Below, piece after piece: positions 28,066 to 33,814 of a DNA stretch of 64,000 bases; within the stretch, counting starts at the first letter, position 1, and every line of letters begins with the position of its first letter. This stretch comes from a virus. Taxonomy: Duplodnaviria; Caudoviricetes. A program made the translations under genes and the position numbers. The DNA lies in the IMG/VR virus record IMGVR_UViG_3300021387_000109, positions 1 through 64,000 of that record, one strand, 5' to 3'. The notes below the pieces were generated by a model, which saw nothing but the letters and a program-made list of their open reading frames with translations, had not been told where the DNA came from and ran no database searches.

Positions 28066-28435
28066 ATGAATCCTTTTAGATAAATATAGTAGATTATATG
28101 CATTTTTTATAAAAATTCATAAAAAGGGTTCCTGTAAATAATTTGAACCAGAAAAGAAAAGATTTTTAAAAATCTACTATATCCTCCTGAAAGCCTCTAG
28201 GAGCCTTTGAGTACCCTTTGCAATAGGGTTACTAGGGCTAACCTCATTTGGTTCAATGGGGACCCTTTTTAAGCGATTTTAGAGCATATATGAGAAAGGA
28301 ATAAAGGAAGGATAGATACGAATTGTTTTTTACATAATGAGAGGGGTAGATACGAATTATTTTTGATGGTAGGAGAGAGGTGTAATACCAGGGGGGCTTG
28401 CCCCCCAATAAATCAACTATCCCCCCCCCTCTTTT
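28066..28435. other. Divergent late/early junction: probable joined genome termini
   Basis: Strand switch between terminase genes and first early promoter, as in N4 genome order; ORF-free. Confidence 0.6.
28313..28358 (+). repeat. 12-bp direct repeat TAGATACGAATT x2
   Basis: Copies at 28313-28324 and 28347-28358, each followed by a T-run. Confidence 0.8.
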
Positions 28436-28454
28436 GGACTGTCGTCCTTAATTG
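28436..28454 (+). promoter_or_regulatory. vRNAP-type hairpin promoter P1
   Basis: GGAC-TGTC-GTCC-TTAATT-G; +1 G predicted at 28454. Confidence 0.75.
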
Positions 28455-28484
28455 ACTATTATCCTTTACTCATGGAGGTACATC

Positions 28485-28673
28485 ATGGATAACTATGGCC
28501 TTTCTCAGATCATTTCTTATCAGCTTGCGGAAATCCGTCAGGAGTTGCGTGAGCAGAGCGAGACTGAAGAACGGAACTGGCTCGTAGAAGAGCAAGAGCG
28601 CTTAGCAGGGATTCTGTGGACTTTGCACAGTGAGAACAAGGATCTCAAGGCTAAGAAGGAAGAAGACGACTAA
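28485..28673 (+). CDS. Early hypothetical protein
   Basis: RBS GGAGGT then ATG at 28485 (MDNYGLS...), downstream of P1, followed by terminator. Confidence 0.7.
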   Translation: MDNYGLSQIISYQLAEIRQELREQSETEERNWLVEEQERLAGILWTLHSENKDLKAKKEEDD

Positions 28674-28679
28674 CCTTCA

Positions 28680-28722
28680 AAGGAGAAGGAACATTTAATA
28701 ATGTTCCTTTCTCCTTTTTTTT
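28680..28722 (+). terminator. Intrinsic terminator
   Basis: AGGAGAAGGAACATT-TAAT-AATGTTCCTTTCTCCT then T run. Confidence 0.8.
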
Positions 28723-28794
28723 CTTTATTTATTTCTTTAACACTCTTAACACATATACACATACACACATACACACTCAACCATACTCATTATT

Positions 28795-28814
28795 AGTCCT
28801 GTCGGACTTAATTG
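28795..28814 (+). promoter_or_regulatory. vRNAP-type hairpin promoter P2
   Basis: AGTCC-TGTC-GGACT-TAATT-G. Confidence 0.85.
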
Positions 28815-28840
28815 ACATTAACCTTTCTAAGGAGATTACT

Positions 28841-29053
28841 ATGGGTTTCTTCAAAGGCGATATCACCAAGACTCTTAAGAACGCTTCTAAGGCTTGGGAG
28901 ATCAAGACAAGAGAGTGGTGTATTGAAACTAAAGATCAAGCACTACTTGATTTAGCAGAACATCGAAAGGATCTTGCAGAAAGAAAGCAAGAGTTAGGAG
29001 TAGATGAAAATGCTTGGAAGGCATTACAGAAGGAATTGGAGGACTTCAAATGA
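28841..29053 (+). CDS. Early hypothetical protein
   Basis: RBS AAGGAG, 70 aa, terminator at 29064-29100. Confidence 0.75.
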   Translation: MGFFKGDITKTLKNASKAWEIKTREWCIETKDQALLDLAEHRKDLAERKQELGVDENAWKALQKELEDFK

Positions 29054-29063
29054 CCTAAAATAA

Positions 29064-29100
29064 ATAAAAGAGTACTTAATGTACTCTTTTATTTTTTATT
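29064..29100 (+). terminator. Intrinsic terminator
   Basis: ATAAAAGAGTAC-TTAAT-GTACTCTTTTAT then T run. Confidence 0.75.
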
Positions 29101-29301
29101 TACTTCTTTTTTATGGTTACACCCTTATTATACTGATAGTATATATATAAGGAAGAAGAAAGTCAAGAGAAAGATACATATTAATATTAGGTAAAAGTAT
29201 GTAGATTTTATTTATACTTACTTTATATTTACTTACTTCTTATATCTTCCTTATAACTTAAAGAGGTAATAACTACTAAAGTGGTTATTTATAGTTTCAC
29301 T

Positions 29302-29322
29302 AAGTTCTGACGAACTTAATTG
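29302..29322 (+). promoter_or_regulatory. vRNAP-type hairpin promoter P3
   Basis: AAGTTC-TGAC-GAACTT-AATT-G. Confidence 0.85.
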
Positions 29323-29364
29323 AAAGAGAGAATTCCTCTCTCTTAACAACTCTAGGAGGCTTCA

Positions 29365-29628
29365 ATGCTTGAAAAGTTTATCAACCAAGAAGGACTTCGT
29401 GGCTATCGTGTAGAAGAGGCCAATGGCTTCTACTTCACTACTATCGAAGGGGACGAAATGTCTGATGTAGATGTAACAGTCTACGCCTTCAGTGCAGAAT
29501 ACATCCTTGATCGCATCACTCCGATGCCCTTCAAGGAGCAGGCTAAGCGACTGTACAATGAGTACAAGAACTCATTCCTGTTTAACAACATGCATGCCAA
29601 CCTGTCTTTGAATAATGTTCTTTATTAG
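29365..29628 (+). CDS. Early hypothetical protein
   Basis: RBS AGGAGG, 87 aa, terminator at about 29643-29678. Confidence 0.75.
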   Translation: MLEKFINQEGLRGYRVEEANGFYFTTIEGDEMSDVDVTVYAFSAEYILDRITPMPFKEQAKRLYNEYKNSFLFNNMHANLSLNNVLY

Positions 29629-29679
29629 GTTGGCAAATATCTGACCCATCATCATTTTGGTGTTGGGTCTTTTTTTTCT

Positions 29680-29700
29680 AAGTCCTGACGGACTTAATAG
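29680..29700 (+). promoter_or_regulatory. vRNAP-type hairpin promoter P4
   Basis: AAGTCC-TGAC-GGACTT-AATA-G. Confidence 0.85.
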
Positions 29701-29725
29701 GATCAACACACAAGGAGGATACATC

Positions 29726-29947
29726 ATGGTTCCTATGGATATCAATGCTTACAAGGCTCTTGATGCTGAATACACCAAGGTGTTTGGTGAATTGGAAAGC
29801 ATCTATTACCTTGAAGTTCTGCCCTTTGGCAAGGCAGATAATGAAGCCGAATATAGTAGGCTTCAGAGTCGTCTTTCTGAGATTTCTCGCACTATGGATA
29901 AGTGGAGAAGTCTCATTGACGAAACTGAGCAAATTCTCAAGAAGTAA
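29726..29947 (+). CDS. Early hypothetical protein
   Basis: RBS AAGGAGG then MVPMDINAYK..., in frame with track ORF 29657-29947. Confidence 0.7.
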   Translation: MVPMDINAYKALDAEYTKVFGELESIYYLEVLPFGKADNEAEYSRLQSRLSEISRTMDKWRSLIDETEQILKK

Positions 29948-29994
29948 AAGATTTGAACCAGTGGCTACTTTGACCATTGGTTCATTTCCCTATT

Positions 29995-30014
29995 AGCCCT
30001 GTCGGGCTTAATTG
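29995..30014 (+). promoter_or_regulatory. vRNAP-type hairpin promoter P5
   Basis: AGCCC-TGTC-GGGCT-TAATT-G. Confidence 0.85.
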
Positions 30015-30132
30015 AGCGCTTACTCCGATTAACCCTTAACCGACCAATGATTAACCCTCTTCGCCTGCTCGATTCTAGAAAGAGCAGAGACCCTCTACAG
30101 ACAAGGCCAGTCTGTAGGGGGTTTTATTTTTT
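30014..30132 (+). ncRNA. Candidate early small RNA (P5 to terminator)
   Basis: Promoter and strong terminator (30090-30132) enclose ~115 nt with no SD-led ORF. Confidence 0.55.
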
Positions 30133-30137
30133 CTCTA

Positions 30138-30157
30138 AGTCCTGACGGACTCAATTG
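30138..30157 (+). promoter_or_regulatory. vRNAP-type hairpin promoter P6
   Basis: AGTCC-TGAC-GGACT-CAATT-G. Confidence 0.85.
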
Positions 30158-30179
30158 ACATTTACTTTTGGAGGTTATC

Positions 30180-30590
30180 ATGTCTTATCGTCTTTGTGTT
30201 GCTGGTTCTCGTAACTTCAACAACGTTCAACTCGCTGAAGAGGTTCTGAGCCAAGTGTTCAACTTCATTGCCAAGAAGCATGGTGATGCCATCACCATTA
30301 TCTCTGGAGGTGCCAAGGGCGCTGACTCCGTTGGAGAGTTGGTGGCTCATAAGCACCACTACGACATTGAACGCTATCTTCCCGATTGGGATAGGTATGG
30401 CAAGAGTGCTGGTTACAAGCGTAATCAGTCGATGTGTGCAGCCAGTAATGGCTGTGTGGTGTTCTGGGATGGTTCCAGTAGAGGGAGTCATCACATGATC
30501 GACATCTGCCGTAAGGCAGGTAAGCCGATCATGGTGGTTGACATGAACGGAAGTGTCATGGACGTGTCCAAGATTCCGTTCCTGTCGTGA
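30180..30590 (+). CDS. SLOG-superfamily protein (DUF2493/YspA-like)
   Basis: VAGSRNF, IISGGAKGADS, SAGYKRNQSM, VFWDGSSRGSHHMI. Confidence 0.85.
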   Translation: MSYRLCVAGSRNFNNVQLAEEVLSQVFNFIAKKHGDAITIISGGAKGADSVGELVAHKHHYDIERYLPDWDRYGKSAGYKRNQSMCAASNGCVVFWDGSSRGSHHMIDICRKAGKPIMVVDMNGSVMDVSKIPFLS

Positions 30591-30596
30591 AGAGTT

Positions 30597-30637
30597 AGGA
30601 GCCAGAGCATGTGGTGTGCTCTGGTTCCTGCTTTTTT
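30597..30637 (+). terminator. Intrinsic terminator
   Basis: AGGAGCCAGAGCA/TGCTCTGGTTCCT then T run. Confidence 0.75.
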
Positions 30638-30652
30638 AATAGGTAAATAGTC

Positions 30653-31060
30653 ATGAAGTTTAGAGATATTTATTGGTTCTTGAGCAATTTCTATCCTTGC
30701 AGGATTACTTTCAATGGACATACATATTTATGTGCTGAAGCGGCATATCAAGCACAGAAATGTCCTGAAAGAGCCATAGAATTTATTAGTCTGAATGGTC
30801 TTCAGGCCAAAAGATTGGGTAGGCATGTTGCAATGGCTAAAGACTTTAATGAGCACAAGGTATACATCATGTATCAGGTGCTTTATTACAAGTTCACTCA
30901 GAATCCTGCTTTAAAAGATAAATTGCTTGGTACTCATGATCTATATCTGCAAGAGGACAATACATGGCATGACACCTATTGGGGTGTTTGCAATGGTATT
31001 GGACAAAATGTGCTTGGCAGATTGCTCATGTGTGTTCGAGACGATTTAAAACACATCTAA
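30653..31060 (+). CDS. NADAR (YbiA-like) family protein
   Basis: FLSNFYP, AEAAYQAQK, KFTQNPALKDKLLGT, LQEDN..DTYWG...GQNVLGRLLM. Confidence 0.92.
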   Translation: MKFRDIYWFLSNFYPCRITFNGHTYLCAEAAYQAQKCPERAIEFISLNGLQAKRLGRHVAMAKDFNEHKVYIMYQVLYYKFTQNPALKDKLLGTHDLYLQEDNTWHDTYWGVCNGIGQNVLGRLLMCVRDDLKHI

Positions 31061-31069
31061 TTCCTATAT

Positions 31070-31088
31070 GCCCTGGCGGGCTTATATG
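31070..31088 (+). promoter_or_regulatory. vRNAP-type hairpin promoter P7
   Basis: GCCC-TGGC-GGGC-TTATAT-G. Confidence 0.75.
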
Positions 31089-31115
31089 GCAAAACTAACC
31101 CAAAAGGAGACAATC

Positions 31116-31642: not shown

Positions 31643-33814
31643 ATGCTTAAGGAAATTTTCGAAAGCATGAAGGCAAGTGATTCCCTTCAAGAGGTGCAGG
31701 TCAAGAACGAACAGACCTACGCCAATGTTAATTACTTGCCCTTCGCTGAAGAGGCTCTTTGGAAGAACAATCCGATGCTGAAGGACTACATTAAGTCCAT
31801 CAGCAATGGAGAAACTGAAGAAAAGTTCTTCAACAAACTGGTTCTTCAGATGGCACTTCAGAAGTGCGCTGACCTCAATACTCTCTGGGGTATCATGAGG
31901 ACAGGTTATTCTGAAAACAAGAACCAGTGGGTTCTTGACCTCATCAAGAGAGGTCTTGAAGCGAATCTCATGAGCCTGTCCAGCAATGGCAAGTTCATGT
32001 ACCGCTATGCTATCGGTGAAGAGGAAGAACGTGTTCTTGATGCGTTCTTCTATCCTCTGCCCTCTGTTGTGCCCATGAAGAAACTTAAGAGCAATTTTGA
32101 TACCGGTTATCAGACTCTCAAGGGTCATGGACTGGTGTTGAACAGCACTGACCTTACTAAAGATCAGGATATCTGCCTTGATGTTCTCAACAATTTCCAG
32201 TCCATGACTTTCAAAGTCAATGAGACTGTGTTGAACAATGTTAATCCCGCTTGGGATTTCGTTAGCACTCAGAAAGCAACTGAGAGTTACGAAACCTACA
32301 AGAGCAGGGTTGACCAGTTCGTGAAGTTTGAAGAGCAGTCTAAGGCTGTTCTTGAGGCACTCAAAGGACTTCCGCTTCATCTCACCGCAGAGTGGGACAA
32401 GCGTGGAAGGCTCTACGACATGGGATATCACTTCCACATCCAGTCCAAGGAATGGACTAAAGCCGCTGTAGACTTCTACATTGGCTTGCCCATCCTGAAC
32501 CAGATTCATGAAGCCAAGGGTTTCAAGGGACAGCAGTTCTCTGACATGGATTACCTGCGCATTGACATTGCAGGCTCTTTCGGTCTTGACAAGAAGACTT
32601 GGAAAGAACGTATTGCATGGACAATGCAGCATGAAGAAGCAGGTGATCTTCTGTCTAAGGAACTCCTGTCTCAGGCTGAATCCCTTCCGCTGTACATGGC
32701 TGGTGTTCAGGCTCTAATGGATGCCAAGGCAGGCAAAGAGGTTCACTATGCAGTTAACCTCGATGCAACTGCTTCTGGTACTCAGATTCTTGGTACCCTG
32801 CTTGGTGATGAGCAGGCCATGATGATCTGCAACGTACTTCCTGTTGCTGATCAGAGTGGTGAAGTGATGCGTCAAGATTCGTATACCATCATTCACAAGA
32901 GCGTAATGCAACTCTTGGGTGGAGCGAATGTCATGACGTACTTTGATCCAGACCTTAATGGAATGGGTCAACGTGCCATGCCTGTATCCAGAGCACATGC
33001 CAAGTGTGCGGTGATGCGTTCCTTCTATGGATCTGAACTGATCATTGATCAGGTCTATGGAGAGGATTCTCCTGCATCTCGGGCATTCTGTCAGGCAATG
33101 GAGATTCATGCTCCGTATGCCTGGGCATTCAACAGTGCCATGCTCGATGCCTGGGACCCTCAGGCAACTGAGTATAACTGGACGATGCCAGATGGCTTCG
33201 AGGTGCATATCCCTGTTGAAGGTCAAGTTGCTGTTGACCTGATGTGGGGTGATACGCCTGTCACGCTCACTTATGTCAAGAGTGGCATCACCAAGAAGAA
33301 GGGACGTGCTCTTAGTGCAAACTATACGCACTCCTTCGATGCTCTGGTTCTCAGAGAGATGTATCGCCGTTGCCATTACAATCAAGGCATGGTGAACTAC
33401 GTCAATGGTGTGCTTGATGGAAAGATCACCAAGGGTAATGCAACTTTGGAACAGAAGGCTCTTTGTGCAAGACTTGCAATTCTTGCCAAAGAGAGTGGGT
33501 TCCTTAGTGCAAGAATCCTTGAGTGTATCAATCCTGATACCATGTCCATTCTCACTGGACTTGAAAGCAAGATCAAAGATCTCATTGCATCTCTGCCCTC
33601 TGAGCCGTTTGAGATCATGAGCATCCACGATTGCTTCAGGTGCCTGCCTCGCTACGGCAATGACGTGCGGTATCAGTACACGAAACTCCTGTCCGAACTG
33701 AACAAGAGCAAGTGTGCTCGATTCGTCTGTGCCCAGATCAGCCCCAGACTCGTTATCAGTGATCCTGTTGACGTATCTGAGGAAATCCTTGAAGCCAATT
33801 ACGCTTTGTCGTAA
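31643..33814 (+). CDS. Single-chain T7-like RNA polymerase = fused N4 RNAPII subunits gp15+gp16
   Basis: gp15-like YPLPSVVP, DICLDVLN, WDKRGRLY..GYH; gp16-like DYLRIDIAGSFGLDK; motifs A LDATASG, B KCAVMRSFYGS, C SIHDCF. Confidence 0.9.
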   Translation: MLKEIFESMKASDSLQEVQVKNEQTYANVNYLPFAEEALWKNNPMLKDYIKSISNGETEEKFFNKLVLQMALQKCADLNTLWGIMRTGYSENKNQWVLDLIKRGLEANLMSLSSNGKFMYRYAIGEEEERVLDAFFYPLPSVVPMKKLKSNFDTGYQTLKGHGLVLNSTDLTKDQDICLDVLNNFQSMTFKVNETVLNNVNPAWDFVSTQKATESYETYKSRVDQFVKFEEQSKAVLEALKGLPLHLTAEWDKRGRLYDMGYHFHIQSKEWTKAAVDFYIGLPILNQIHEAKGFKGQQFSDMDYLRIDIAGSFGLDKKTWKERIAWTMQHEEAGDLLSKELLSQAESLPLYMAGVQALMDAKAGKEVHYAVNLDATASGTQILGTLLGDEQAMMICNVLPVADQSGEVMRQDSYTIIHKSVMQLLGGANVMTYFDPDLNGMGQRAMPVSRAHAKCAVMRSFYGSELIIDQVYGEDSPASRAFCQAMEIHAPYAWAFNSAMLDAWDPQATEYNWTMPDGFEVHIPVEGQVAVDLMWGDTPVTLTYVKSGITKKKGRALSANYTHSFDALVLREMYRRCHYNQGMVNYVNGVLDGKITKGNATLEQKALCARLAILAKESGFLSARILECINPDTMSILTGLESKIKDLIASLPSEPFEIMSIHDCFRCLPRYGNDVRYQYTKLLSELNKSKCARFVCAQISPRLVISDPVDVSEEILEANYALS

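Follow-up and report, generated by a model that had tools for sequence, protein, structure and literature searches.

The locus described here lies in the genome of an uncultured, N4-like gut phage, the assembly of which measures 76,007 bp and has overlapping ends; the window, by which we mean the whole stretch of DNA analysed, is its first 64 kb (64,000 nt). Public runs containing DNA of the phage carry the labels gut metagenome or sheep-gut metagenome, and one of them may be its source. On the minus strand, the remainder of the assembly has an ORF of 4013 codons (63894-75932), a length matching that of an N4-type virion RNA polymerase (vRNAP); a T7-like RNA polymerase of 723 aa (PF00940) is encoded at 31643-33814. 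This RNA polymerase II is a single chain, and most of its 150 best homologues are ~400 aa long and match only residues ~297-723; thus, two N4-type RNA polymerase subunits appear to be fused here and in a few relatives. Leftward late genes start from 28065, and a 420-nt gap separates the divergent late and early arms. Within this gap, TAGATACGAATT(G/A)TTTTT occurs twice, 36 nt apart (28310-28365), and a perfect G6CTTGC6 hairpin with a C9 run (28391-28432) stands just 5' of the first early promoter. The latter element is almost identical in a sister lineage (introduced below), in which the intergenic DNA around it has diverged, and it could be a genome-end, packaging or injection signal.

The early arm itself is organized by seven hairpin promoters on the + strand (28436-31081), each with the layout stem-TGNC-stem and mostly followed by TTAATTGA. 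A hairpin terminator closes each of the first six early units, and at three junctions (T3-P4, T4-P5 and T5-P6) terminator and promoter are spaced by only 5-10 nt. A short leader followed by a GGAG-type Shine-Dalgarno (SD) sequence and an ATG is found downstream of six of the seven promoters, that is, all but P5. The features in and around the P5 unit are as follows.

28436, 28796, 29304, 29682, 29996, 30139 and 31070 (starts), + strand: 4-bp cores of the seven promoters
29954-29984, + strand: T4, terminator hairpin of the upstream 73-aa gene, an inverted repeat with 11-nt arms and a weak U-run (TTTCCC)
29995-30016, + strand: P5, a vRNAP-type hairpin promoter (AGCCC-TGTC-GGGCT, hairpin 29995-30008) with downstream TAATTGAG
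30014, + strand: putative transcription start G, placed by the geometry of all seven promoters and by N4/LUZ7 precedent (PMC4496689, PMC9163698)
30014-30064, + strand: 5' arm of 51 nt, predicted single-stranded by folding, C-rich (18 C, 7 G)
30027-30036 and 30049-30058, + strand: two exact copies of GATTAACCCT, located by repeat search
30065-30087, + strand: hp1, a hairpin with a 6-bp stem (CUGCUC/GAGCAG, 30065-30070/30082-30087) and an 11-nt loop, GAUUCUAGAAA
30088-30132, + strand: T5, an intrinsic-type terminator with a 15-bp stem (30088-30102/30110-30124), a 7-nt loop and a U4AU6 tail ending at 30132
30138-30159, + strand: P6, the next hairpin promoter, 5 nt past the T5 U-run, driving the SLOG/YspA-like gene at 30180-30590

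The genes 3' of the P5 unit (30180-31060) encode a SLOG/YspA-like protein (PF10686) and then a NADAR protein (PF08719), which are candidates for nucleotide or ADP-ribose-related counter-defence; PF08960 was matched in the lineage B orthologue of a gene near the P5 unit. At 90%, the SLOG-type protein falls into a cluster with three members, and its next homologue is only 50% identical, while a homologue search with the upstream 73-aa protein returned only itself.

Early promoters and relatives of the phage

The relatives available for comparison are few. The sister lineage, lineage B, is represented by three public contigs (L002-L004; L021 and L002 are one record). Between it and the window's own lineage, lineage A, conserved proteins are 83-88% identical and 4-fold degenerate sites 64% identical (213/334), which gives the neutral expectation of 0.64 used below. 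A fourth contig belongs to lineage A and has the same 232-nt uncalled gap; gene callers placed no gene in the P5 gap on any of the four public contigs. A second A-type variant is ~97% identical in the P5 unit and <85% in the adjacent P4 gene, a difference drawn from contigs that counts as weak evidence in favour of the RNA reading below. The next-nearest relative by RNA polymerase II (L019) is 41% identical and has TTC-triloop promoters, and no P5-like unit was found within its 2.1 kb of sequence. Within 620-830 and 1262-1552 of L019, the early intergenic DNA carries three copies of TATAAACCCTT, and a ~150-nt 5' leader closed by a long stem precedes the homologue of the 187-aa gene. A link between the AACCCTT core in the window and these three TATAAACCCTT motifs of lineage C was considered and dropped, the likeness being too weak.

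Database searches did not extend this set. GenBank phages include no close DNA relative, the only matches being 80-nt RNA polymerase matches to Erwinia phage Pastis and Pseudomonas phage Zuri. In IMG/VR, a protein-anchored search with the SLOG protein and RNA polymerase II gave no matches and the promoter pattern gave 0; an hp1 pattern gave 14, all unrelated chance matches, and a stricter hp1 pattern gave 0. Patterns for the hp1/T5 junction and for P5 each returned 0 matches in JGI metagenome contigs, and two hp1 patterns had 0 exact-pattern matches in 185,579 reference prokaryote genomes, a scan that would miss near-matches. Even at permissive settings, Rfam gave only chance hits below the gathering threshold (the best score, 20.4 bits against a required 88, came from a miRNA model merely fitting the terminator hairpin), and ARAGORN predicted no tRNA or tmRNA in the unit.

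The promoters form a covarying family. Each of the seven has a positional counterpart in the sister lineage, and across the resulting 14 sequences (7 promoters x 2 lineages) the 5-bp stem is paired in 97% of cells, with 15 double-change cells, a number reached by 0 of 500 shuffles. The motif AGYCCTGWCGGRCT occurs four times against 0.02 expected by chance, and a G 11 nt past the last loop base is common to all seven promoters. P5 had been described as equal to the other promoters, and it is indeed a full member of this family: it has a 5-bp stem (AGCCC/GGGCT), TAATTGAG after the stem and G30014 at 11 nt. The P5 region is identical at 28 of 29 positions in the sister, the stem being unchanged and the loop differing as TGTC to TGGC. 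Moreover, the P5 stem sequence is unique among the promoters and the same in both lineages, so it is not maintained by gene conversion from paralogous promoters. The upstream terminator T4 is also kept in the sister lineage, with a better T-run there.

In contrast to the promoters and terminators, which align between lineages, the genes between them have diverged: those of the P1 and P4 units share only ~61-62% nucleotide identity, and the P2-P4 gene bodies have no blastn match in the sister lineage. Conserved terminator-promoter junctions around divergent ORFs, the arrangement of PeSL-like cassettes, are thus present, and the early region as a whole (28435-31090 against L021 1720-4600) behaves as a series of exchangeable cassettes. 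In one variant contig, the identity class switches at two points, the P4 promoter and T4, which is only suggestive of recombination at junctions. Between T1 and P2 (28745-28780), both lineages carry a CA-rich low-complexity tract of the ACACATAC type. In the metatranscriptome of the same sample, a single contig on 28000-32000 covers 28469-28670 and so falls exactly on the first early unit, which is predicted to start at 28454 and has its terminator at 28685-28720; this is a hint only, since DNA may be present in the library and transcript ends cannot be read from contigs. The P5 unit is not covered in this run, which carries no weight in either direction.

Coding potential and conservation of the P5 unit

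No SD-led ORF lies between P5 and its terminator, unlike in the other six units, and in this respect the preliminary description holds. The only ATG in the unit, at 30047, opens a 32-codon ORF (30047-30145, + strand), which we rejected as a gene: its leader, CCUUAACCGACCA, has no SD, and its stop (30143-30145) is located beyond the terminator, past the U-run and in the loop of the P6 promoter hairpin. The sister breaks this frame in three ways, namely by a change of ATG to GTT, an insertion with a stop, and a 1-nt frameshifting indel. Conversely, a 7-codon ORF of lineage B (MLKFHWG) is absent here, and a TTG frame in lineage B begins 2 nt before the inferred start site. An ancestral coding frame suggested by a shared (M/V)INPL was likewise rejected, because it rests on 10/12 identical bases and the frames are otherwise broken. 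That the unit encodes a small peptide, 32 aa here and 7 aa in the sister, can draw on the ATG and open frame in the window and on the strong SD ahead of the sister's 7-codon ORF. Yet the 32-aa ORF has no SD while all neighbouring genes have one, its position relative to the terminator would make the terminated RNA a non-stop message, over half of the frame would come from hairpin arms, and no ORF is common to the two lineages. As no peptide is shared, protein coding is very improbable. Translation and conservation of the 32-aa ORF had been named beforehand as an outcome that would speak against an RNA; with the ORF not conserved in the sister, the result falls on the side of the RNA.

The 5' arm is the variable part of the unit. 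Between lineages it cannot be aligned past ATTAAYCCKCTT, contains indels and looks neutral. The arm of lineage B has ~58 extra nt, including GAGGAGGAG (an SD) followed by the ATG and seven codons; in L002 (3259-3340), the C-rich arm is replaced by a purine-rich one with this strong SD, the 7-codon ORF and a perfect 16-nt palindrome (TAAAGATATATCTTTA). The two copies of GATTAACCCT in the window are 22 nt apart with unrelated spacers and occur at these two sites only within the 76-kb genome; a repeat of at least 10 nt arose in only 60 of 20,000 shuffles (0.3%). The sister has one degenerate copy only, ATTAATCCG, and the duplication is therefore specific to the window's lineage. Thus, the C/U-rich 5' part with a duplicated GAUUAACCCU exists as originally described, but as a functional feature it is not conserved in the sister.

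The opposite is true of the 3' module (30062-30132), which is identical at 64 of 72 positions (P ~1e-6 against the neutral rate). Within it, the hp1 region (30062-30087) is identical at 25 of 27 positions (neutral 0.64, P ~7e-4). The hp1 stem is unaltered in the sister, and the loop, which contains the palindrome UCUAGA, differs by one substitution and one inserted U (11 to 12 nt). The middle hairpin CUGCUC/GAGCAG proposed earlier is therefore present and better conserved than neutral sites. It is also dispensable for termination and yet conserved, and a second conserved hairpin of this kind is absent from all other early units. In the adjacent T5 stem, six substitutions fall in four pairs and 15 of 15 pairs are kept in the sister; two of the four carry double compensatory changes (U-A to C-G; A-U to G-C), and the other two proceed via G-U. 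Because G-U pairs work on the + strand only, the constraint acts on the transcript or on that DNA strand, and because T5 keeps all of its pairs despite substitutions, stopping the transcript just before P6 is selected. Other early terminators in the phage are also well conserved, however, and T5 conservation alone is not distinctive. The terminator had been given as 13 bp; the hairpin with its U-run is there, but the fold extends the stem to 15 bp, of which the 13 bp are the core. Similarly, the covariation that was to be sought in relatives is seen as compensatory changes in the terminator stem, while hp1 shows conservation and no covariation. Since only two diverged lineages exist, structure and sequence constraint are inseparable for hp1.

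Folding of 30014-30132 gives an unstructured arm, hp1 and then T5 directly (z = -3.2), an architecture of the sRNA type, in which a single-stranded arm is followed by a hairpin and a U-tailed terminator. The sister unit has z = -6.4 and folds into three hairpins after the mini-ORF. Overall, the initial view of P5-T5 as a self-contained early unit without a credible ORF is borne out, promoter and terminator both being conserved in the sister.

A putative early RNA and its alternatives

What could such a unit be for? Judged by comparison of the two lineages, the data show selection on initiation at P5, on stopping before P6 and on retention of hp1, a combination that fits a discrete RNA whose 3' double hairpin matters. 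We infer that selection acts on the RNA as such and not on the process of transcribing it; the tolerated change in hp1 loop length mildly favours an RNA loop over a double-stranded DNA operator of fixed spacing. Our preferred reading, to which we give a probability of about 0.45, is that P5-T5 specifies a real non-coding early RNA made by the vRNAP, a putative transcript whose conserved part is the 3' double hairpin. The injected vRNAP would initiate close to G30014, on the extruded hairpin of P5, and would stop in the U-run at ~30125-30132, releasing a predicted RNA of ~115 nt here and ~175 nt in the sister. The 3' module, consisting of hp1 with its UCUAGA loop stacked on the terminator hairpin and U-tail, would be the working part, possibly as a protein-binding or stability scaffold or with hp1 as a loop-contact site, and the single-stranded 5' arm would be free to vary between lineages. 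Most probably, the RNA would serve together with the early genes next to it, as a small regulatory or decoy RNA directed at a factor or an RNA of the host during the first minutes of infection. Against this reading, the 5' arm, which is the usual seed site of sRNAs, is by sequence comparison the least conserved part, and a sister arm with a strong SD and AUG is odd for a purely non-coding RNA. A more specific version, in which the vRNAP makes a dedicated non-coding RNA within the first minutes that acts through its conserved 3' double hairpin, by binding or titration, on a host factor (such as a defence sensor, nuclease or RNA chaperone) while the 5' arm evolves fast, is unlikely.

Several concrete roles had been proposed at the outset, and none of them has gained support. 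An antisense regulator acting within the phage finds no target that scores above chance: blastn-short gave no internal match below E = 0.1, and RNAduplex against 212 candidate SD-led phage start sites gave a best value of -34.3 kcal/mol, which falls within 30 shuffles (-28 to -38.8). In addition, a conserved single-stranded seed, as expected of a base-pairing sRNA, is lacking, only the hp1 loop being conserved and not the 5' arm. As a mimic of a type III antitoxin, the unit lacks a ToxI-like tandem array of ~36-nt repeats beside a toxin gene, having two 10-nt copies only, and no ToxN-type Pfam match is found among its neighbours, which are SLOG and NADAR. A decoy of CRISPR repeats is unsupported, hp1 having no exact copy in the reference genomes scanned by a pattern search that would miss near-matches; nor does that scan give any sign of a host-derived element. 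An 11-12-nt loop like that of hp1 is not known from typical CRISPR-repeat hairpins.

The main rival, and a serious one, is that the unit is an emptied cassette, in which the ORF was lost in the common ancestor and the promoter and terminator were kept as punctuation, with an RNA that has no function of its own. We regard this as possible at well below even chances, and hold equally tentatively the roles that such an architecture might serve: transcription-driven DNA entry, re-initiation by scarce vRNAP, or insulation of neighbours. The three tight terminator-promoter junctions, the divergent or unmatched gene bodies of P1-P4 between aligning promoters and terminators, and the neutral look of the unit's own 5' body all suit ORF loss, and the SD, ATG and seven codons of the sister could be the stump of a gene start. 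Furthermore, early transcription in N4 helps draw the genome into the cell (PMC4496689), and PeSL-mediated deletion or replacement of ORFans is documented (PMC2839356). However, the loss of an ORF leaves the conservation of the hp1 region unexplained, and the empty unit would have outlasted a divergence that lowered 4-fold sites to 64% identity. The unique P5 stem, identical in both lineages, speaks against upkeep by gene conversion from paralogous promoters, and an intact ancestral gene was not found in any relative. If the cassette is nevertheless an emptied one, it documents PeSL-like modular punctuation on hairpin promoters and bears on the swapping of early accessory genes in the family.

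Two further possibilities keep hp1 in play as a functional element but give it a different part. P5 may be an upstream tandem promoter for the SLOG/NADAR genes, with hp1 and T5 forming an attenuator subject to regulated read-through, and in the sister, translation of the 7-codon ORF might regulate. For LUZ7, early promoters in tandem are reported, as is read-through of terminators that is extensive and varies with time (PMC9163698); the sister does have an SD-led mini-ORF followed by three hairpins, and both hp1 and T5 are conserved. Such a cis-acting leader is nonetheless improbable: P6, 5 nt past T5, drives the same gene and renders read-through redundant, the mini-ORF is absent here, and the fold contains no antiterminator pairing, the 5' arm being predicted unstructured. 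Alternatively, hp1 may work at the DNA level: as an imperfect palindrome of 23 bp (CTGCTC..TCTAGA..GAGCAG), it could be an operator or binding site through which a dimeric protein of phage or host controls early transcription, with the RNA incidental. Its inverted-repeat symmetry around the central UCUAGA palindrome is conserved in both lineages, but the half-site spacing differs by 1 bp between them, the element occurs only once in the genome, and the G-U pairs in the neighbouring stem suggest that the + strand transcript is what selection acts on, which together make an operator quite improbable.

Comparison with known systems

If the P5-T5 unit does produce a dedicated RNA that acts on a host factor, this would be the first example from a Schitovirus of an immediate-early RNA with a regulatory or counter-defence role, preceding any phage protein. 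Phages that inject a polymerase can act on the host before any translation; no counter-measure could be faster than an RNA effector synthesized by the virion polymerase, and such an effector would add an RNA layer to the N4 early programme. In that case, hp1 and the terminator would also offer a compact model of ~70 nt for binding studies. In the literature covered, which is partial and so no proof of novelty, we found neither an ORF-less vRNAP unit nor an RNA effector of an N4-like virion polymerase.

The closest parallels are the early units of N4 and LUZ7 (Schitoviridae), which likewise have a hairpin promoter for an injected vRNAP and begin with a G whose spacing from the loop is fixed; they are short, end at hairpin-plus-U terminators and yield early products of very small size (PMC4496689, PMC9163698). 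Their described early units encode proteins, whereas the P5 unit has no ORF, and their loops are of 3 nt rather than the 4 nt seen here (TGNC, non-template strand). In LUZ7, nine early start sites have been mapped, and the sRNA candidates are late and intergenic (PMC9163698). Small non-coding phage RNAs that neutralize host defence are known in the form of ToxI and of RNA anti-CRISPRs (solitary repeat mimics), and an early site near candidate counter-defence genes would suit such a function. In contrast to ToxI, the P5 unit has neither a tandem array of ~36-nt repeats nor a toxin gene, and, in contrast to RNA anti-CRISPRs, its hp1 hairpin is matched in no reference genome or viral contig by pattern scans.

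In overall build, the putative RNA is similar to trans-acting sRNAs of the Hfq/ProQ type from bacteria and phages, which measure ~100-180 nt and combine a single-stranded arm with an internal hairpin and a U-tailed terminator hairpin. Here, however, the 3' module is conserved and the arm, the usual seed, is not, and the maker would be a single-subunit virion polymerase instead of the host RNA polymerase. Finally, the layout of the region is akin to the PeSL cassettes of T4-type phages, in which small ORFans that change fast lie between composite terminator-promoter junctions, the punctuation around this exchangeable content being kept (PMC2839356, PMC4122927). The promoters of PeSL cassettes are of the sigma-70 type and those here are vRNAP hairpins; moreover, the P5 unit is not vacant between its conserved promoter and terminator but contains a non-coding hairpin that is itself conserved.
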